A stretch of DNA of 64,000 bases, from NCBI GenBank assembly GCA_965203555.1, contig CBDBCY010000004.1, forward strand, positions 512,001-576,000, in the 5' to 3' direction. Every line of letters starts with the position of its first letter. Position 1 is the stretch's first letter. A program made the position numbers and the translations under genes. The notes beneath the pieces were generated by a model that saw nothing but the letters and a program-made list of their open reading frames with translations, did no database searches and was not told the DNA's origin. The DNA comes from Acidimicrobiia bacterium. Lineage in GTDB: Bacteria; Actinomycetota; Acidimicrobiia; Spongiisociales; ZC4RG35. This document shows, one piece after another, positions 39,552 to 50,290 of this stretch.

Positions 39552-40466
39552 TCACTCTCGGGGAATCCACGGCGTCTGGGACAAAAGGTCCAGGAGCAAC
39601 GCCGCGAACGAATGCAAACGGTTTTCGGCTTGGTCGAACACCACAGAGCGGGGCGACTCCAACACCTCGGCGGTCACCTCCTCGCCCCGATGGGCAGGCA
39701 GACAATGCATGAACACCCCGTCGGGGTCGGCCCGTTCCATCAACTCGGAGTCAACGGTGTAATCCGCAAAGGCGGCCAAGCGATGCTGAGCCTCTTCCTC
39801 CTGGCCCATGGAAGTCCATACATCGGTGTAGACCGCGTGAGCCCCTTCCACCGCCGGGACGGGATGATCGAAAATCGAGACCCTGCCCCACTGGCGGGCC
39901 CGTGCCACCACACTCGAATCGGGCCTGTAGCCGGGGGGACACCCGACCCGCACCTCCATCCCCACCATGGTTCCGGCCAGCATCAGAGAGTGGCAGACGT
40001 TGTTTCCATCCCCCACATAGGCGAGTCTGGCGCCGCGCAGAGGACGCCTCTCGGCAATGGTCATCAGATCGGCCACCGCCTGACAGGGGTGTTCCCAATC
40101 CGACAGCAGGTTGATCACTGGCGCATTCATGAATCTTGACATCTCTTCCAGCAGAGAATGCTCAAAGACCCGCATCCCCATAGCGTCGAGATAGCGGTCG
40201 AGCACCCGGGCGACGTCCGACACCTCTTCCCTCTGGCCCACCCCCGAGACATCCTGGCGTATGACTATGGGGTGGGCGCCCAAGAGAGCCGTGGCGGCGG
40301 TGGATGACACCCAGGTCCTCAAGGAAGGCTTCTGAAAGAACATACCCACCGTTTTTCCCGACAGTGCCCGGCGGTACCGCCCGGGGTTTCGCTTGAAGTC
40401 CAAGGCGGTTTCCACTAGACGGGCCAATCCCTCGGGTCCCCGATCCGCTACCGAGAGAAAACTCAC
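39552..40466 (-). CDS. argF: Ornithine carbamoyltransferase
   Basis: SLRT, HPCQ, GDGNNV, DVWTSMG, HCLP and QAENR. Confidence 0.9.
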   Translation of the reverse strand: MSFLSVADRGPEGLARLVETALDFKRNPGRYRRALSGKTVGMFFQKPSLRTWVSSTAATALLGAHPIVIRQDVSGVGQREEVSDVARVLDRYLDAMGMRVFEHSLLEEMSRFMNAPVINLLSDWEHPCQAVADLMTIAERRPLRGARLAYVGDGNNVCHSLMLAGTMVGMEVRVGCPPGYRPDSSVVARARQWGRVSIFDHPVPAVEGAHAVYTDVWTSMGQEEEAQHRLAAFADYTVDSELMERADPDGVFMHCLPAHRGEEVTAEVLESPRSVVFDQAENRLHSFAALLLDLLSQTPWIPRE

Positions 40467-42868
40467 AACTCCCCCCGGAGTTCGGCGCCCAATTGCCGGG
40501 CGGCATCGGCCATGGAACGTAGAGCCTCTCCGGTCTCTTCACCTGAGAGGGTGCGATCCGGCGCCCTGAGCGTATAGTTGATCGCCAGACTCTTCCTTCC
40601 CTCCGCCAGAGGCGCCCCCCTGAATTCATCGAACACCCGGGCGGACTCCAGCAGAACGCCGGCCGCCTGTCCGGTGGCCGCCAGCAGGTCGTCGGCGCCC
40701 AACTCCTCGGGGGTTTCGAAAGCCAAGTCAAATGTGTAGGGTGGGAAAACGCTCGGCGCCCGGAATTGCCAATGATCCCGCTCGGTCACCAGCGGATCGA
40801 GTTCCACCTCCATCGCAATCACCCTTCCGGAAAGTTCCGCCCTTCTGACCACCGCGGGATGGACTTCTCCCATTGTCCCCACCGTCTTACCGTCCAGCAT
40901 CAAGCGAGCGGCGCGGGCGGGATGCCACCCCGCCGTCTCGGTGGGCGCCAGCCGCCACTCCCCCAGATCCAGGTGGTTGGACAAGGCTCTCCAAACCGCT
41001 GAAACCGTGAAGAAGTCCACCGACCGTTGAGCGAGACCCAATCCCGTTCCCCCCAGGCGCCCGGTAGCCAGGACTCCGATTCGCTCGGGCTGATCCGGTA
41101 CCTTGGGCAGCGTGGGATGGGGACGGTCCAAGAACACCCTGCCCAACTCGAAGATGGCTACGTCTTCCAACCCATGTGAATAGTTGTATTTCGCCACCCG
41201 CAGGAGTCCCGGCAGCAGAGTGGTTCGCAATATGGACTCCTCCTCCCGGAGAGGGTTCTTGAGCCGAATGTCGGCGGCTCGCTCGTCGTCGCTTTCCCAT
41301 CCCCAGATCTCGATCTCCGCAGCTCGCATGAAACTCAGGGAGACCGACTCGGAGAACCCCAAACCACACAGGGCCTGACGAAGAGTCCGCGTGCGACGCT
41401 GGATCACCGAGCGTCCCCCTCCCGGACCGCGGGGCACCCGCTCGGGGAAGTTGTCATATCCCCACAAACGCGCCAATTCCTCCACCAAATCGATTGGTCT
41501 GGTCAGGTCGGGTCGGAAGGTGGGGACTGTGACCGAGACTGGATCCTCCCCTTCCACAGCCAGGTGAAGCCGGGAGAGAAGATCCACTACCCGGGGGGTG
41601 TCGAACCCCGGTCCCAGGATGCGCTCCGCCTCTTTCATCTCAAGGCTGATCGTGACCGACTCGAGCTTGTCCTCTCGGGCAACAACGTCCGTCACCTGTC
41701 TTACGGCCTGCCCCCCGGTCAACTGCGTGACCAACTCTGCCGCCCGGGCCGCGGCCTGCGGGGGCAAAGCCGGATCCACCCCCCGTTCGAACCGGGCAGA
41801 AGCCTCGGTGCGCAGGGCATGGCGCTTGGACATGTGCAGTACCGTCGGAGGATCCCAGGCAGCGGCTTCGATCAGCACCGAGGTGGTCCGATCGGTGACC
41901 TCCGAAGAGCCGCCCCCCATGGTGCCTGCCAGAGCGGAGGCCCGCTCCCGGTCGGCCACCACCAGATCCGAAGCGTTCAATGCCCGCTCCACCCCGTCCA
42001 GGGTGGTGAGCCTCTCCCCGGGCCTGGCCCTTCTCACCACAATCCCCGCCCCGCCCAGTTCATCCAGATCGAAGGCGTGTATGGGCTGGCCCAGTTCCAG
42101 GAGCACATAGTTGGTGATGTCCACCACATTCGAGATAGGCCGTTGTCCCGAGGCCCGCAGCCGGGTCTGCATCCAGAACGGGGATGGCGATACCTTGCAA
42201 CCCTGTACCTCTCGGGCCGTGAACCGGTAGCAGCCACTGGGGTCCTCAATGGTGATCCCGATCCGGGGAGCGGCTTCGACCTGGGGAAAGTCAGGTTCCG
42301 GCACACGAAACCCGATTTGATGGTAGGCGGACAACTCCCGGGCCACTCCCACGTACGACATCACATCGGGCCGGTTGGGAGTGATACTCAGGTCGAGCAC
42401 GGTGTCGGTAAGGGAAACGAAGCCTGCCAGATCATCCCCGACCGGGACATCGGCGTCGAAAACCAGGATGCCTTCCGCGTCCTCGCCCAACCCGAGTTCC
42501 CTCTCCGAGCAAATCATCCCATTGGAAACCACCCCGCGGATAGACCGTCGGCCGATCTGCATCCCTCCGCTCAGCGTGGATCCGGGAAGGGCCAGCGCCA
42601 CGGTGGCGCCTGCTTCGAAATTCCACGCTCCGCACACCACTGTCATCGGCTCGTCTCCGGTGGTCACGCGACAAACTCTGATCCGGTCGGCCCGAGGGTG
42701 CGGCGCAACCTCCAGTACCCGGGCAGTCACCACCCCGTCGAATTGCGGAGTAAGCGACTCGACCTCCTCAACTTCATGACCCAAAGACTCCAACACCGCA
42801 GCCACCGCACCCGATTCCCAGGTCGGAAGGTCGATGTAGTCAGCCAGCCAGTTGAAGGAGACTCTCAT
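40463..42868 (-). CDS. pheT: Phenylalanine--tRNA ligase beta subunit
   Basis: Starts MRVSFNWL at 42868; ITPNRPD, RFERGVD and an anticodon-binding domain ending DRTL. Confidence 0.95.
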   Translation of the reverse strand: MRVSFNWLADYIDLPTWESGAVAAVLESLGHEVEEVESLTPQFDGVVTARVLEVAPHPRADRIRVCRVTTGDEPMTVVCGAWNFEAGATVALALPGSTLSGGMQIGRRSIRGVVSNGMICSERELGLGEDAEGILVFDADVPVGDDLAGFVSLTDTVLDLSITPNRPDVMSYVGVARELSAYHQIGFRVPEPDFPQVEAAPRIGITIEDPSGCYRFTAREVQGCKVSPSPFWMQTRLRASGQRPISNVVDITNYVLLELGQPIHAFDLDELGGAGIVVRRARPGERLTTLDGVERALNASDLVVADRERASALAGTMGGGSSEVTDRTTSVLIEAAAWDPPTVLHMSKRHALRTEASARFERGVDPALPPQAAARAAELVTQLTGGQAVRQVTDVVAREDKLESVTISLEMKEAERILGPGFDTPRVVDLLSRLHLAVEGEDPVSVTVPTFRPDLTRPIDLVEELARLWGYDNFPERVPRGPGGGRSVIQRRTRTLRQALCGLGFSESVSLSFMRAAEIEIWGWESDDERAADIRLKNPLREEESILRTTLLPGLLRVAKYNYSHGLEDVAIFELGRVFLDRPHPTLPKVPDQPERIGVLATGRLGGTGLGLAQRSVDFFTVSAVWRALSNHLDLGEWRLAPTETAGWHPARAARLMLDGKTVGTMGEVHPAVVRRAELSGRVIAMEVELDPLVTERDHWQFRAPSVFPPYTFDLAFETPEELGADDLLAATGQAAGVLLESARVFDEFRGAPLAEGRKSLAINYTLRAPDRTLSGEETGEALRSMADAARQLGAELRGEL

Positions 42869-43902
42869 CGGAACTGGGAGAGCACTCGGAGATCGTTGTC
42901 GAAGAAGTGGCGCAGCGGCGAGACACCGTGGCGCACCTGGGCAATCCGCTCCACTCCCATCCCGAACGCGAAACCGCTCACCTTGGATGGGTCGTACCCC
43001 ACCCACTCGAAGACATTGGGATCAACCATGCCGCACCCCAACAACTCGATCCATCCCACCCCTCCGCAGACCCGGCAGTCTCCTCCCCCTTCGCAGGCAA
43101 AACAGGAAGCATGCATCTCGGCCGACGGTTCGGTGAATGGAAAGAAATTGGGAAGCATGCGGATACGACGGTCTGCTCCGAAGAACTTCCTGGCAAAGTA
43201 AGCGAGCGTCCCTCGCAAATCGGAGAAAGTCAGGTTCTCGTCAACCGCCAGACCCTCTATTTGGTGGAAAACCGGCGAGTGGGTGGCGTCGGGGGTGTCT
43301 GCTCTGAACACCTTGCCCGGCACCACCACATAAACCGGAGGATCATGGTTCTCCATATACCGGGCCTGCATGGGGGACGTGTGGGTACGCAGCAGGATCT
43401 CATCGGCGGGATCTCCCCAGTCGAGGTAGAGAGTATCTGACTCCAACCGGCTGGGATGAGTGGGAGGAGTGTTGAGAGCGTCGAAATTGTAGATTCCCGA
43501 CTCTGCCTCCGGACCCCCTACCACCTGATACCCCAGTCCTATGAAGATGTCGCACACTTCTTCGATGGTGGAAGTGATCAGATGGGTGTACCCCTCCGGA
43601 TATCGGAGGGCCGGGAGGGTGACGTCCACCCGGTCGGCAGCCAACATCAAGCGTTCGCCATCAGCCTCAAGAGAATCCCGGCGTGTCGCTATCAGATCGG
43701 TGAAGGTGCGCCGCGCTTTTTGGATCGCTCTTCCCAGCCGGGGGCGCTCGTCGGGCGGCAGTTTGCCAATCCGTCTCTGCAGTCCCGCGATCACTGACCG
43801 TCTGCCCAACAGGTCGCTGCGGACCGCGTCGAGTTCCTCCAGGCTGGTCGCCCCCTCCACCAGGCCGGGGGCTTGTTCCATCAGAGCGGCAAGGTTTTCC
43901 AT
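42865..43902 (-). CDS. pheS: Phenylalanine--tRNA ligase alpha subunit
   Basis: LLRTHTSP, FHQIEG, FPFTEPS and GFAFGMGVER. Confidence 0.96.
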   Translation of the reverse strand: MENLAALMEQAPGLVEGATSLEELDAVRSDLLGRRSVIAGLQRRIGKLPPDERPRLGRAIQKARRTFTDLIATRRDSLEADGERLMLAADRVDVTLPALRYPEGYTHLITSTIEEVCDIFIGLGYQVVGGPEAESGIYNFDALNTPPTHPSRLESDTLYLDWGDPADEILLRTHTSPMQARYMENHDPPVYVVVPGKVFRADTPDATHSPVFHQIEGLAVDENLTFSDLRGTLAYFARKFFGADRRIRMLPNFFPFTEPSAEMHASCFACEGGGDCRVCGGVGWIELLGCGMVDPNVFEWVGYDPSKVSGFAFGMGVERIAQVRHGVSPLRHFFDNDLRVLSQFR

Positions 43903-45288: not shown

Positions 45289-45843
45289 TCATCTCCTCTG
45301 CCTGTGTCGTTGCTTATTCCTGCCCCTACCCGACCCATGACTCAGCGGGGCCAGCATCATGGTCATATTGCGTCCCTCCATTTTGGGCGCCTGCTCCATG
45401 ACCCCGTCCTGGCTGACGGCGTCGGCCAAGCGGGCCAACAGCTTCTGACCGTATTCCGGCCTCTCCCGCTCCCTGCCGCGAAAGCGAACCGTCAACTTCA
45501 CCTTGTCGCCTCCCGACAGGAATGCGACGACCTTGCGAGTCTGCATCTCGAAGTCATGGTCTTCGATGCGGGGCCTGAGCCGCAATTCCTTGATCACTGT
45601 CCGCGACTGGCTCTTGCGCGCAGCCCTTTCCTTGATGGAACGTTCGTACTTGAAGCGTCCGTAATCCATGAGGCGGCAGACGGGCGGATCGGCCATGGGG
45701 GCAACCTCCACCAGATCCAGGTCCAACTGTTCCGCCAGCCACATGGCCTCCTCCCGCTTCTTGACCCCGATCTGTGCCCCGTCCGGCGCCACCAAGCGAA
45801 CCACAGCCGCTTTTATTCCATCATTCACTCGAAGTTCTGCGAT
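45289..45843 (-). CDS. infC: Translation initiation factor IF-3 (non-canonical ATC start)
   Basis: LDLVEVAP.ADPPVCRLMDYG and KVKLTVRFRGRE; AGGAGG 7 nt before ATC at 45843. Confidence 0.93.
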   Translation of the reverse strand: MAELRVNDGIKAAVVRLVAPDGAQIGVKKREEAMWLAEQLDLDLVEVAPMADPPVCRLMDYGRFKYERSIKERAARKSQSRTVIKELRLRPRIEDHDFEMQTRKVVAFLSGGDKVKLTVRFRGRERERPEYGQKLLARLADAVSQDGVMEQAPKMEGRNMTMMLAPLSHGSGRGRNKQRHRQRR

Positions 45844-45849
45844 AGTGTC

Positions 45850-45994
45850 TCCTCCTGTTTCAAGAGCCTGCGCCAAGCAAAAGAATCCGCTCCCAAGAAC
45901 CACGGCTCACCTGGCGGCGGCCGGGTGGGAAGCAAAACAGCCTCCGCTTCGTATAGCAAGCCGACAGTATAACCCGGCCCGGAAGATTGTCCAA
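45850..45994 (-). promoter_or_regulatory. infC operon promoter and L20-leader-like 5' UTR
   Basis: TTGGAC-17 bp-TATACT (-10 at 45971-45966). The leader GAAGCGGAGG..GCUUCCCAC..GGGAGCGG resembles L20 autoregulatory leaders. Confidence 0.55.
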
Positions 45995-45996
45995 GC

Positions 45997-46701
45997 TCAC
46001 CTTATCTCGGACCGGAGAGCCTCCACCACGGCCCGGGCGGCCTGGGCGCCGGCATTTGCCTCGGGTCTGCTACGGGCCACCGCCTGTTCCCACTCCGAAA
46101 CCGCCAGAACAGCGTTCCCAACCGGAACGCCCGTGTCGATCTGCAGCTGGATCAGGCCCTGGACCGCTCCGTCAACTACGGAGTGGAAGTGGTGAGTCTC
46201 CCCTTGCATGACCACCGCAGTGGCCACCACGCCCTGACACCCGGCCTGGATCAATCGGCTGGCCCCCCAGGGAAGTTCCCATGCTCCTGCGACGTCCAAG
46301 CGGACAATATTCTCTGGTTTAATCCCCATTTCCACCAGCGTCTCACGGGCGCCGTCACCCAGCCGGTCTGCCACCGGGGCGCTGCCCACTTTATCAAAAC
46401 GGGCCATAACCAACCCCACCTTCGGCTCCCTCCGCGCCCAGGGCAACACGATCAGCCATGCCAGTCCAATCACAGAACTGATGAATACGCCGATCCCCGC
46501 CATACCGAACACCAGAAAGAAACTCCATGCCAGATCGTCTCTTACCCACAGCAAGCCCGCCAGCACCAGCACCGAGATACCCAGCCAGATGACAGTGATG
46601 GATATTGCCACCCTTCTATAGATCTCAAAGTTGGGCGACCTGCGGTATCCGAACCCGATGTTGGCCAGACGTCGGTAGAGATCAGTACTTCCCGGAAACA
46701 C
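45997..46701 (-). CDS. ribH: Lumazine synthase (RibH) domain fused to two N-terminal TM helices
   Basis: VMARF, VAGAWELP, GETHHF, GVPVGNAVL and EQAVARS; ~90-aa N-terminal extension with two hydrophobic helices. Confidence 0.8.
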   Translation of the reverse strand: MFPGSTDLYRRLANIGFGYRRSPNFEIYRRVAISITVIWLGISVLVLAGLLWVRDDLAWSFFLVFGMAGIGVFISSVIGLAWLIVLPWARREPKVGLVMARFDKVGSAPVADRLGDGARETLVEMGIKPENIVRLDVAGAWELPWGASRLIQAGCQGVVATAVVMQGETHHFHSVVDGAVQGLIQLQIDTGVPVGNAVLAVSEWEQAVARSRPEANAGAQAARAVVEALRSEIR

Positions 46702-46737
46702 AGGACAAAATTCTAGCCGCGATGCCTGTCGGCAGAT

Positions 46738-47514
46738 TCAGAGCCTGCGCCACGTATCCAAAAAATCGCGCACCCCTTCGGCGTGATCCGAACTTGCCGT
46801 CAACTCTCTCCAAATCCGCTCCGTGTCCTGATTGTCGCCTGTCTGGCCTTTAGCCACCATTCTCATCATCTCTTTCATCGACCGCAGGGACGTCTGAGAC
46901 ATGCTGCACACCAGTGCCAAAAGACCGTCGAGCTTCGATTGGAAGGACTGTGGCTCATACAACGCCGACAGGAGCCCGATCCGCAGCGCCCGCTCGGCGT
47001 TGAATACCTCTCCGGTGAACAGCAGCCACTTTGCGTGGGTCTCGCCGACCGCCGCCACCAGAGAGCGCAACGCTGCATACGGGAAGGCCAGCCCAACCCG
47101 GGCGGGGGGAAGACTGAAGCGAGCGGTTTGATCGGCCACCCGTAGGTCGCAGACCATGGAGATCGCCGCCCCGCCCCCCATGCAGACGCCCCGGATGGCA
47201 GCCACCGTAGGTTTTTTCATATCGGCCACCGCCGATATTCCGGCCGTTACCGTCTCACCGTTCTCCACGCCGCTCTCGCCCTGGGACAGGCGCTCCGCCC
47301 ACTCCGCCACATCAGCGCCCGCGCAGAACACGGCGGAATCGGCGCCCCTGATCACCATCACCTTGGTACGGTCGTCCAAGTCGGCTTCCCGGGCCAGATC
47401 GGCCAGTATCGACCACATCTCATCGCTGAAGGCGTTGCGTCTCCGCGGCCGATCAATTATCAGGTGGGCGACTTCGTCTCGGCGCTGCAGGTATAGGGAT
47501 CTTGACTTGCCCAC
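46738..47514 (-). CDS. Enoyl-CoA hydratase/isomerase family protein
   Basis: RRNAF, FCAGAD, CMGGG and PARVGL. Confidence 0.88.
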   Translation of the reverse strand: MGKSRSLYLQRRDEVAHLIIDRPRRRNAFSDEMWSILADLAREADLDDRTKVMVIRGADSAVFCAGADVAEWAERLSQGESGVENGETVTAGISAVADMKKPTVAAIRGVCMGGGAAISMVCDLRVADQTARFSLPPARVGLAFPYAALRSLVAAVGETHAKWLLFTGEVFNAERALRIGLLSALYEPQSFQSKLDGLLALVCSMSQTSLRSMKEMMRMVAKGQTGDNQDTERIWRELTASSDHAEGVRDFLDTWRRL

Positions 47515-47524
47515 CGAAGCGAGA

Positions 47525-48100
47525 CTACTTGCGGGGCACGCGGCCCAGTAGATAAAACTCGGGATTGGGCATCATGTGGCCCAGATGGGCCAGTCTGTTG
47601 GACATGGCAAAGAAAGCGGTGATCGCCCCGATTTCCCAGATTTCGTCGTCGGTGAAGCCCTGCTCGTAGAGAGGCTGGTAGTCGCGGTCCTCGATCTCTT
47701 CGGGAGTGCGGGCCAGTTTTACCGCGAAACGGAGCATGGCGCTCTGTCGGTCCGAAACGGGGGCCGTTCGCCAGTTGGCGGCGACTTGATCGGAGATGAG
47801 CGGGTCACCCGATCGGATGCGAAGAATCGCCCCGTGGGCCACTATGCAATAAGGACATTCGTTGGCTGCGCTGGTGGCAACCACAATCATCTCCCGCTCA
47901 ACCTTCGACAACCCCTCCTCCCCCTCCATCAGAGCGTCGTGATAGGCGAAGAAGGCTCTTGCCTCCTCCGGTCGATGGCCCAGAGCCAACATTACATTGG
48001 GAGTGAATCCCAGTTTGGAATGGACAAATTCGGCCCTTTCCCGCAGATCGTCCGGCAGCTCGGATATGTCGGCCATCGGGAAACGGGAATTATCAGGCAT
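47525..48100 (-). CDS. AhpD-like peroxidase-related enzyme
   Basis: EREMIVVATSAANECPYCIVAHG and FFAMSNR. Confidence 0.9.
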   Translation of the reverse strand: MPDNSRFPMADISELPDDLRERAEFVHSKLGFTPNVMLALGHRPEEARAFFAYHDALMEGEEGLSKVEREMIVVATSAANECPYCIVAHGAILRIRSGDPLISDQVAANWRTAPVSDRQSAMLRFAVKLARTPEEIEDRDYQPLYEQGFTDDEIWEIGAITAFFAMSNRLAHLGHMMPNPEFYLLGRVPRK

Positions 48101-48200: not shown

Positions 48201-49643
48201 ATGTCCACACCAGCCGAAGTATCGGCCCTCGCTCAAGAATACGAGTTTGTTGATCTTCGTTTCCCGGACCTGCCGGGGAAGATGCATCACTTCACCATGC
48301 CGTCCAGCTACCTGACCGAAGAGTCCTTCGAGGAGGGCTTCGGATTCGATGGTTCGTCCATCCGTGGCTTCCAGACCATCGAGGAGTCGGATATGCTGCT
48401 CATTCCCGATCCCTCCGTCGCCTTCGAGGATCCTTTCTTCGTGCGCAGCACCCTGGTTGTGAACTGCTTCATCAAGGATCCGATCACCGGAGACTGGTAC
48501 CACAAAGATCCGCGGCGCGTGGCAAGGAACGCCGAGGAGTACCTGCTCTCCACCGGCATCGCCGACACCTCCTATTGGGGTCCCGAAGCCGAGTTTTTCA
48601 TCTTTGACTCCGCCCGGTTCTCCCAGGTCGGTCATCACAGCAACATGTCCTTCTACGAGGTGGACTCCGTGGAAGCCGCATGGAACTCGGCGCAGCAATG
48701 GAACTCGGCGCAGCAGGAAGACGTAGGCAACCTGGGACACAAGATGCGCCACAAGGAAGGCTACTTCCCGGTACCTCCCAACGACACCCAGCAGGACATC
48801 CGTTCAGAGATGGTCGCCCAGATGCTCAAAGTGGGAATTCCCATCGAGATACATCACCATGAAGTGGGAACCGCCGGCCAGGCCGAGATCGACATTCGGT
48901 ATGCGCCTCTGCTTCTGCAAGCCGATCGTTTGATGATCTACAAGTACATCTGCAAGAACGTGGCCAAGCAGGCGGGCAAGACCGTCACTTTCATGCCCAA
49001 GCCCATCTTCTCGGACAACGGTTCGGGGATGCATACCCACCAAAGCCTCTGGAAAGACGGCGTACCGCTATTTTATGAAGAGGGTACCTACGCCAACCTC
49101 TCCGACATGGCCCGCTGGTACGCGGGCGGTTTGATCGCCCACGCTCCGGCCATTCTCGCCTTTGCGGCGCCCGGAACCAACTCCTACCGTAGATTGGTGC
49201 CCGGTTTCGAAGCTCCGGTCAACCTGGTGTACAGCCAGCGCAATCGCTCCGCTGCGATCCGGATTCCCACCTACTCGGAAGCGCCCTCCGCCAAACGGCT
49301 CGAGTTCCGCTGCCCTGATCCGTCCTGCAACCCCTACTACGCCTTCGCCGCCATGCTGATGGCGGGGCTGGACGGGGTTCGCAATCAGATCGAGCCGGGC
49401 GATCCGGTCGATGTGGACCTGTACGAACTGAGCTCCGAGGAAGCTGCCGGACTGAAGACAGTTCCCGGAACCCTGGACGAGGCATTGGACGCCTTGCAAG
49501 CCGACCACGCTTTCCTGACCGAAGGCAACGTATTCTCCCAGGACCTGATCGATACCTGGATCTCCTACAAGCGGGAGAACGAGGCCAGCTTGGTGAGGCG
49601 CCATCCGACCCCGGTGGAGTACGAGCTCTACTACGACATTTAA
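48201..49643 (+). CDS. glnA: Glutamine synthetase type I
   Basis: [34 protein letters not shown] and adenylylation-site DLYEL. Confidence 0.97.
48680..48715 (+). repeat. Perfect 18-bp tandem duplication within glnA
   Basis: atggaactcggcgcagca x2, giving [12 protein letters not shown]. Confidence 0.95.
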
Positions 49644-49905: not shown

Positions 49906-49985
49906 TTGACAAAACGTTAGATTGCCCCTAGCCTTAATGGCTTGTGAGACCCAGCAACAGAGACATGCTTGTGAAAGTGTTCACA
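49906..49985 (+). promoter_or_regulatory. whiB promoter with downstream CRP-type box
   Basis: TTGACA (49906)-17 bp-TAGCCT (49929); TGTGA-aagtgt-TCACA at 49970-49985. Confidence 0.75.
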
Positions 49986-50008
49986 ATCGTAAGCTTGGAG
50001 ATGACCTC

Positions 50009-50290
50009 TTGAACACGACCATAACCATCACCGATTGGAGGGAGTCGGCCGCTTGCCTTGACTCCGATCCCACCCTGTTTTTTCCGGTGGGCAGCACCGG
50101 ACCTGCCGTTGAGCAAATCGCAATGGCAACTTCCATCTGCACCAGCTGCCACGTAATAGAAGACTGCCTGCAATACGCCTTGGAGACGAACCAAGAATCG
50201 GGCGTGTGGGGCGGCTATTCGGAAGATGCTCGTCGCAGACTGCGGAAGCGCTGGCTAGCCAAACGGCGCCGCCAACACCTGGCCCGTTAA
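50009..50290 (+). CDS. WhiB family Fe-S transcriptional regulator (WhiB1/WblE-like)
   Basis: Four Cys (C, CxxC, C), FFPVGSTGPA and GVWGG; GGAG SD before TTG 50009. Confidence 0.9.
   Translation: MNTTITITDWRESAACLDSDPTLFFPVGSTGPAVEQIAMATSICTSCHVIEDCLQYALETNQESGVWGGYSEDARRRLRKRWLAKRRRQHLAR

Follow-up and report, generated by a model that had tools for sequence, protein, structure and literature searches.

A lumazine synthase-family protein with a predicted transmembrane hairpin, apparently confined to one genus of uncultured marine Acidimicrobiia

The 64,000-nt stretch of DNA analyzed here (the window, C4:512001-576000 in the genome of an uncultured marine Acidimicrobiia bacterium) encodes on its minus strand a protein in which a predicted two-helix transmembrane (TM) hairpin precedes a full 6,7-dimethyl-8-ribityllumazine synthase (RibH) domain. 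The gene, TM-ribH, is an uninterrupted open reading frame (ORF) at 45997..46701 that begins with GTG and comprises 234 codons plus a stop. Textbooks present lumazine synthase as a soluble enzyme, and it is in wide use as a nanoparticle scaffold; to our knowledge its natural forms are pentamers, decamers and capsids. We consider the fusion almost certainly real, and we think it probable, with less assurance, that TM-RibH is an active, membrane-tethered pentameric lumazine synthase and the only one the organism has. Its membrane insertion, oligomeric state and activity are what we infer from features of the sequence.

TM-RibH can be divided into six parts. Residues 1-30 (46612..46701) form a basic tail, predicted to be cytoplasmic, with six Arg and three YRR units. 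Residues 31-53 (46543..46611) and 60-88 (46438..46524) are predicted transmembrane helices 1 and 2, separated by a short acidic loop, RDDLAW (residues 54-59, 46525..46542), which is predicted to lie on the outer face by the positive-inside rule, the basis for our topology assignment. The linker ARREPK (residues 89-94, 46420..46437), predicted to be cytoplasmic, leads into the lumazine synthase domain (residues 95-234, 46000..46419), which was identified by PF00885, TIGR00114, PDB sequence matches and Foldseek. Kyte-Doolittle hydropathy in 19-residue windows, for which the customary threshold is 1.6, reaches maxima of 2.41 at residues 31-49 and 2.25 at residues 67-85, and residues 95-234 have no peak as high as those of the two N-terminal helices. 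An AlphaFold2 (AF2) model built from a 24-row alignment has helices at residues 23-52 and 57-89 with pLDDT of about 77-85 (about 77-83 for helix 1), followed by a beta-alpha domain with pLDDT >90 whose strand beta-1 spans residues 95-100; pLDDT is <50 over residues 1-22 of the tail. By count from the sequence, the net charge is about +4 for the tail, -1 for the loop and +2 for the linker, a pattern that agrees with the positive-inside rule and with both ends of the hairpin being cytoplasmic. The loop reads RDDL, RDNL or RGDL in the alignment of homologues. An earlier reading of the window made without database searches (the sequence-only reading) had described a single uninterrupted frame with a basic N-terminus, two TM stretches and a RibH fold, and had placed RibH in the cytoplasm on the basis of charge distribution. 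The ORF itself, hydropathy, PF00885 and the AF2 model bear out the first description, and the basic tail and linker together with the acidic loop support the second, again by way of the positive-inside rule.

By profile, predicted fold and strictly conserved residues, TM-RibH is a member of the DMRL-synthase family. PF00885 matches residues 94-230 with an E-value of 1.5e-33 and 116 bits, compared to a cut-off of 26.7, and TIGR00114 is passed narrowly (88 bits vs. 84.6). Foldseek comparison of the AF2 model, the domain of which has a flavodoxin-like alpha/beta fold, with solved lumazine synthases gave E-values of about 1e-10, rmsd of 1.8-2.7 Å and TM-scores (target) of 0.72-0.86, and the best PDB sequence matches by phmmer were to RibH of Salmonella (3mk3, E 2.4e-17) and Mycobacterium tuberculosis (1w19, E 3.5e-15). 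The model for archaeal riboflavin synthase, TIGR01506, gave a weak match (E 1.7e-4) of 21.5 bits against a cut-off of 100.55, and we therefore do not count TM-RibH as a member of that family.

Long open frames arise by chance in high-GC genomes, as exemplified here by a 177-aa shadow ORF on the opposite strand, and one could imagine that mis-assembly, a frameshift or a mis-called start had joined a foreign upstream frame to an ordinary ribH. Nothing else speaks for such an artefact, and several lines of evidence speak against it. When 5.8 billion protein clusters were searched, 47 proteins were returned, 30 of which have the same fused layout at 67-91% identity; below these, identity is at most 46% and the alignment is restricted to the enzyme part of the query. 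The clusters come from several sources, and one of the 30 is labelled by its source as Acidimicrobiia bacterium. Two N-terminal hydrophobic stretches (threshold 1.6) are present in 29 of the 30, while the partial sequence P0028 has one. A six-frame search of 121 genomes of the family found the N-terminal part in all seven genomes of the genus, with E-values from 1.4e-58 to 1.5e-10. These are the window's own genome (G000; 95% complete, 4 contigs), G022, G049, G068, G086, G100 and G113, and two of the seven are assemblies of 1-2 contigs. The architecture that the sequence-only reading had proposed to look for in relatives is thus present in 7/7 genomes and 30 clusters, and no relative shows two separate genes. 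Nor was a stop or indel found at the junction, where the same reading had advised a check: Logan contigs from four runs of three studies span the ORF with 0 gaps, the runs representing one coded organism, which may be the source itself, one coral metagenome and one sponge metagenome. Contigs from the other runs carry eight substitutions inside the ORF, six of them synonymous.

Coding signatures point in the same direction. GC content at third codon positions (GC3) in the N-terminal part is 69.9%, compared to 70.7-76.4% in neighboring genes and 46-52% in the other two frames. Pairwise ratios of nonsynonymous to synonymous substitution rates (dN/dS) among the seven genes ran from 0.03 to 0.42 in the tail, from 0.05 to 0.49 in the helices and from 0.04 to 0.23 in the enzyme, where the ranges cover the computable pairs and many tail pairs are saturated. 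Both signatures match this frame, and a conserved -10 box stands at its start. Given the same fusion in seven genomes and 30 clusters, we regard an artefact as scarcely credible.

The -10 box, TAGAAT (46710..46715, minus strand), lies 8 nt upstream of GTG 46701 and is a probable promoter for a leaderless mRNA. All seven genomes of the genus have a TAnnnT hexamer whose end lies 7-8 nt ahead of the start, preceded by TGC in four, which agrees with the claim of the sequence-only reading that translation begins at this GTG. For M. tuberculosis, passages of a published study place TANNNT, centered 7-12 bp upstream, at 73% of primary transcription start sites, with no -35 motif (PMC3898074). The most economical reading of the conserved hexamer is that transcription yields a leaderless mRNA from the start codon, and we accordingly suggest that such an mRNA begins at GTG 46701.

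Alternatively, the working enzyme may be soluble, either because translation starts internally, near codons 95-99, and bypasses the hairpin, or because proteolysis removes it. In the window's own genome there is some basis for this idea, as the linker codons for RRE spell a Shine-Dalgarno-like GGAGGGAG 6 nt ahead of the GTG of codon 95, and codon 99 is ATG. However, GGAGGGAG is restricted to G000 and absent from the other six genomes of the genus. In G049, codons 95 and 97 are GTC and CTG, where the other six genomes have GTG and TTG. Residue 99, which is Met in G000, is Thr, Ile or Val in several metagenome homologues, and a start there would cut strand beta-1 (residues 95-100 in the AF2 model). 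Comparison of the seven genomes and the metagenome homologues revealed no conserved internal start, and we reject on these comparative grounds an internal start that yields soluble RibH, an outcome that the sequence-only reading had regarded as fatal to a membrane-anchored form. Purifying selection on the tail and helices would also be unexpected for a part that is bypassed. Altogether, a soluble working enzyme seems to us improbable.

The fused gene is the only lumazine synthase gene that we detected. Whole-genome Pfam searches found one PF00885 match in the window's own genome and exactly one, the fused gene, in each of five further genomes of the genus, and in G022 a search with the whole protein gave one match. 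A second, soluble ribH, which had been suggested as something to look for, is thus not among the PF00885 matches of these 6/6 genomes. The remainder of the pathway is in place. Genes for RibD, RibE (with two lumazine-binding barrels) and RibBA are grouped on the same contig (locus L005; G000:C4, about 99.4-101.9 kb), at a distance of some 456 kb from TM-ribH, and the whole-genome Pfam searches that located them there agree with the earlier observation that the window holds no other rib genes. RibBA is present elsewhere in the genome in 5/5 relatives, and a flavokinase domain (ribF) is present in the window's own genome. No match to ECF-type riboflavin transporter families was found, a weak negative, and the search of the window's own genome for a flavin mononucleotide riboswitch was likewise a weak negative; the same search was positive in 7 of 14 control genomes. 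Two further matches lie away from the rib operon: a second, weaker GTP_cyclohydro2 match (E 2.5e-12, in a 442-aa frame) at G000:C4:227850-228281, and a second, weaker RibD_C match (E 4.8e-14) at C4:1528235-1528912.

To place the fused gene in an evolutionary context, we compared its loci in the genus (L039-L045) with 27 loci that represent other genera of its family (L012-L038; one of these, L026, belongs to the unpublished genome G033 and is nowhere the sole basis of a claim). The order in the other genera is ribE-ribBA-ribH-infC: RibBA adjoins RibH in 25 of 27 loci, RibH is directly followed by IF3 in 26 of them, and contig ends account for the exceptions. RibH is soluble in these genera; at L017, for example, 17 residues separate an in-frame Met from strand beta-1. 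All seven genomes of the window's genus have the order CMD-(ECH)-TM-RibH-IF3, two of them with an enoyl-CoA hydratase (ECH) gene. The shared position upstream of infC identifies the fused gene as the positional orthologue of the ordinary ribH, and synteny shows that in the ancestor of the genus ribH became separated from ribBA by a break in the ribE-ribBA-ribH-infC array. The end of the rib operon at L005 is the other side of this break. No ribH follows ribBA there; the next ORFs, on the other strand, are a 118-aa ORF without a Pfam family and an amidohydrolase fragment. We propose that ribH, still ahead of infC, gained a new promoter, a new start and a hairpin-coding 5′ end, and that the resulting gene has been kept by selection since. 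A maximum-likelihood tree of 45 rows (seven fused, 26 from the family and 12 representatives from outside it; L020, whose best tblastn piece was shorter than 100 aa, was excluded) recovered the TM-RibH clade as monophyletic with support of 100/100, and placed it as sister to the soluble RibHs of the family inside a clade with support of 97/89. The tree thus carries no sign of import from outside the family.

Searches for a source of the hairpin were negative within their respective scopes. The best E-value outside the genus was 0.002 in a six-frame search of the other 114 of the 121 family genomes. Among proteins of 51-165 aa there was no stand-alone homologue at E <= 0.01, and among proteins of 128-410 aa all 19 matches were the same RibH fusion, with no other fusion partner. 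Residues 1-94 belong to no Pfam family (best E 9.2), the Atlas contained no usable match for the whole protein, with scores for residues 1-93 of at most 0.82, and the genes that lie downstream of CMD at 12 loci from other genera include no consistent hairpin gene. One outside match (E 4.3e-5) emerged from 401 genomes of the class, representing 177 genera; it falls within a 577-aa multi-pass membrane ORF, and we took it to be a chance match and rejected it as a donor. Possible origins of the hairpin are non-coding DNA and a decayed membrane gene.

We next considered the active site, mapping positions by alignment to Salmonella RibH (3mk3) and counting residues over the seven fused and 26 soluble family sequences. 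Positions are given in Bacillus subtilis numbering, which we take to be Phe22, Asn23, Glu58, Thr86, His88, Arg127, Lys135 and Glu138. The ribityl-binding Glu58 (E142), the phosphate-binding Thr86 (T169) and Arg127 (R210), and the catalytic His88 (H171) are kept in 7/7 fused sequences, and the aromatic gate Phe22 (F102), for which Phe or Trp is expected in the family, is Phe in six and Tyr in one. Other positions distinguish the fused clade from the other genera, among them Lys135 and Glu138, which belong to the neighboring subunit. The Lys135 equivalent (A217) is Ala in six fused sequences and Leu in one, compared to Lys in 25 of 26 sequences elsewhere (Gln in L025), and the Glu138 equivalent (Q220) is Gln in 7/7, compared to Glu in 26/26. 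The residue before the catalytic His (170) is His in six and Arg in one, compared to Asp in 26/26; the residue after it (172) is Phe in 7/7, compared to Tyr in 26/26; and the Asn23 equivalent (D103) is Asp in 6/7, compared to Asn in 25 sequences, the 26th row being gapped. Relative to Salmonella RibH, there is also a 4-aa insertion after ARFDKV (G106-P109), beside the substrate gate, and the fused clade has another 2 aa inserted farther along. Most of what the sequence-only reading had noted about this site extends to the clade: the Phe, His and Arg equivalents are kept in the seven genomes apart from the one gate Tyr, the insertion of about four residues after ARF is G106-P109, and the change of NKG to NAG is clade-wide (Ala 6/7, Leu 1/7) and paired with loss of the Glu138 equivalent. 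Its report of QGET in place of RGET is correct for the window's sequence and fails as a feature of the clade, in which Q is found in 2/7 and R in 5/7.

Passages of a study of lumazine synthases describe Arg and Thr as strictly conserved in all of them and an uncharged residue at the Arg position as inactivating, while mutations of Phe, His, Lys (Lys134) and Glu (Glu137) are said to influence catalysis weakly, catalysis being due mainly to proximity and activation entropy (PMC2935281). Loss of the Lys135 and Glu138 equivalents therefore does not exclude family membership, and the enzyme is probably active with a remodelled pocket.

Conservation in the tail equals that in the enzyme domain over 31 sequences: the top residue reaches a mean fraction of 0.87, compared to 0.77-0.80 in the helices, and 12 of the 30 tail positions do not vary. 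This suggests that the tail makes a specific contact beyond the needs of a plain anchor. The three YRR units of the tail are LYRRLAN, GYRRSPN and IYRRVAI; the tail of G068 is shorter, with a single YRYRR unit. These repeats may reflect a short internal duplication and may have a specific binding role. Helix 2 has a face of small residues (G71, S75 and G79) that is conserved in the homologue alignment and reads GxxxGxxxG in G068. Such small-xxx-small patterns are often tied to helix-helix packing in oligomeric membrane proteins.

Several of these observations weigh against a tethered, active enzyme. Of the RibH equivalog models, TIGR00114 is the only one passed, and scores for NF000814 and NF009084 are far below their cut-offs. 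The stem branch of the TM-RibH clade is long (1.74 substitutions per site). Loss of the Lys135 and Glu138 equivalents, the changes flanking the catalytic His, the replacement of Asn23 by Asp and the gate insertion mean that the active site appears remodelled; a six-residue linker may strain the pentamer; and, as judged from the alignment, a plain anchor leaves the high conservation of the tail unexplained. An alternative explanation is that TM-RibH has become a RibH-like membrane protein that still binds pyrimidine, lumazine or flavin ligands and serves another role, such as sensing a ligand, acting as a pore or exporter, docking a partner via the tail or carrying out altered chemistry, with lumazine formation slow or largely non-enzymatic. 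The lumazine synthase reaction also proceeds without an enzyme, which counts for this explanation, as do the fixed clade-specific changes near the active site (Lys to Ala or Leu, Glu to Gln, Asp to His or Arg, Tyr to Phe, and Asn to Asp) with the 4-aa insertion in the gate loop, the long stem branch, the tail with its 12 of 30 invariant positions and the small-xxx-small face of helix 2. However, the fused gene is the sole PF00885 gene in 6/6 genomes in which the remaining pathway is intact, and TM-RibH retains the His, the aromatic gate and the two strictly conserved residues, Arg and Thr. Mutations at the Lys and Glu positions are weak in effect according to the passages cited above (PMC2935281), and M. 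tuberculosis RibH likewise has Gln at the Glu position. The enzyme domain is moreover under constraint (dN/dS 0.04-0.23) and has diverged in proportion to RibBA and IF3. Median identities between the genus and other genera, and among the other genera, were 42.1 and 52.9% for RibH, 67.9 and 73.4% for RibBA (for which the genus is represented by the window's own genome only), and 68.7 and 74.7% for IF3, and the corresponding ratios of -ln(identity) were 1.36, 1.25 and 1.29. The stem is therefore as long as the overall depth of the genus would lead one to expect. We also considered whether the enzyme domain has evolved at an accelerated rate, which is not supported, the RibH ratio being close to those of RibBA and IF3. 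We take a change of function seriously as an explanation while considering it unlikely.

If TM-RibH is indeed a tethered lumazine synthase, we envisage the following. A leaderless mRNA would start at GTG 46701, as the conserved -10 box suggests. Residues 31-53 and 60-88 would insert as a hairpin, to judge from hydropathy and the positive-inside rule, so that the Arg-rich tail and the ARREPK linker would stay in the cytoplasm and the acidic RDDL loop would be outside. The C-terminal domain, like others of its family, would form a pentamer with active sites between neighboring subunits. The five N-termini would exit from one outward face, so that the disc would rest flat against the inner leaflet with ten helices around it. 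With outward N-termini and a hairpin on each subunit, a pentamer on the inner leaflet would be expected and a closed 60-mer would not, because sixty hairpins could not share one bilayer; this model would thus exclude the 60-mer capsid. The sequence-only reading had likewise pictured a ten-helix membrane ring on the pentamer, and had suggested a site of flavin synthesis or export, a ligand sensor or channel, or a membrane-shaping scaffold, ideas that are conjectural. The retained residues and the pathway context suggest that the enzyme would condense 5-amino-6-ribitylamino-uracil with 3,4-dihydroxy-2-butanone 4-phosphate, and that the resulting lumazine would go to soluble RibE for conversion to riboflavin.

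A more far-reaching version, which we think has little chance of being right, would make the protein an enzyme and a pore at once. The ten-helix ring, packed via G71-S75-G79, would be co-axial with the central channel of the pentamer and would couple synthesis to release across the membrane. It is equally doubtful that lumazine made, or riboflavin bound, at the inner leaflet is passed outward to a sponge or coral host in a manner resembling group translocation, and just as conjectural that this provisions the host with a vitamin or a signal while the Arg-rich tail gates the pore or docks RibE or RibBA.

The genes around TM-ribH were also examined. Upstream on the minus strand lie the ECH gene (46738..47514) and, upstream of it, a gene for a CMD/AhpD-like protein (47525..48100). 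As ECH stands between the CMD gene and TM-ribH in only two of the seven genomes (G000 and G068), we do not regard it as a functional partner of the fusion. Downstream on the same strand are infC (45289..45903), followed by rpmI, rplT and a gene for a SpoU-type methyltransferase, as well as putative pheS and pheT genes (ORFs 42865..43902 and 40463..43006), identified from their translations only. A promoter-like site, TGGACA-16-TATACT (45966..45993, minus strand), was found by consensus scan right after the ribH stop and ahead of infC. The sigma-70-like scan found this one site compared to 0.4 expected, and infC may have its own promoter. On the plus strand, a glutamine synthetase gene (48201..49643) is divergent from the CMD gene, and beyond it lies a gene for a WhiB-family regulator (49922..50290), the presence of which agrees with an actinobacterial origin.

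Among the papers listed by full-text searches, none describes a natural membrane-anchored lumazine synthase in its title or abstract, and counts of the terms ‘membrane’, ‘transmembrane’ and ‘fusion’ were all zero in a 2026 review of riboflavin biosynthesis (PMC13151069). We also searched a 50%-identity library of 1.84 billion representatives and inspected the best 150 of 2844 matches. The TM-RibH clade collapses there to one full-length representative, and only two matches reach E 1e-30. Among these best 150, no other protein has a two-helix extension; a single N-terminal hydrophobic stretch in four others resembles a transit or signal peptide, and a hydrophobic tail at the C-terminus of one more is suggestive of read-through. 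Judging from these searches, TM-RibH differs from all described forms by its predicted transmembrane hairpin and appears to be confined to one genus of uncultured marine Acidimicrobiia. If our reading is correct, a natural, selected membrane-anchored form would be a fourth state of lumazine synthase, and a pathway enzyme would be able to move to the membrane after an operon break and yet remain the only copy. The gene would provide a dated, traceable example of how an old enzyme acquires a new transmembrane segment, and its product could be put to use as a membrane-tethered C5 scaffold that already exists. As the setting is host-associated, one may ask whether the supply of flavin or lumazine at the membrane is relevant to symbiosis. 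For specialists of this much-studied enzyme and scaffold, the finding would be a clear surprise with a clean evolutionary history, although it concerns one uncultured genus and its functional steps are deduced from sequence.

Among known systems, the RibH of M. tuberculosis (PDB 1W19 and 2VI5) is a close counterpart, being also actinobacterial and having the same fold and family (Foldseek TM-score (target) 0.85-0.86) and, by alignment, Gln at the Glu138-equivalent position, as does TM-RibH. It differs in being soluble, about 160 aa long and without a hydrophobic N-terminal extension, and in keeping the Lys (..EDKGAQ..); a passage of the review mentioned above states that it purifies as a pentamer (PMC13151069). 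The icosahedral 60-mer lumazine synthases of Salmonella (3MK3), B. subtilis (1RVV) and Aquifex aeolicus (1HQK) share the active-site Phe, Glu, Thr, His and Arg, and the Salmonella enzyme is the best sequence match, with 37% identity in Foldseek. Unlike TM-RibH, however, these are soluble capsids that lack the 4-aa gate insertion and have not lost the Lys and Glu. The soluble RibHs of the sister genera (L012-L038) are positional orthologues right upstream of infC with 36-48% identity in the domain. They differ in being the last gene of ribE-ribBA-ribH, in having no hairpin and in keeping NKG..E as well as the Asp and Tyr around the catalytic His. The archaeal pentameric riboflavin synthase is described in part of the same review as a paralogue of lumazine synthase with a homologous fold and pentamer (PMC13151069); the genome with TM-RibH also has an ordinary two-barrel RibE. 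Engineered N-terminal fusions on lumazine synthase scaffolds are a further known system. According to passages of a published account, all forms of lumazine synthase have exposed N- and C-termini that point outward, N-terminal fusions are tolerated, and in vaccine display, for example on the Brucella decamer, the exposed N-terminus carries its fusion with folding and assembly intact (PMC7369331). Unlike TM-RibH, such fusions are artificial, display soluble cargo and contain no membrane segment.

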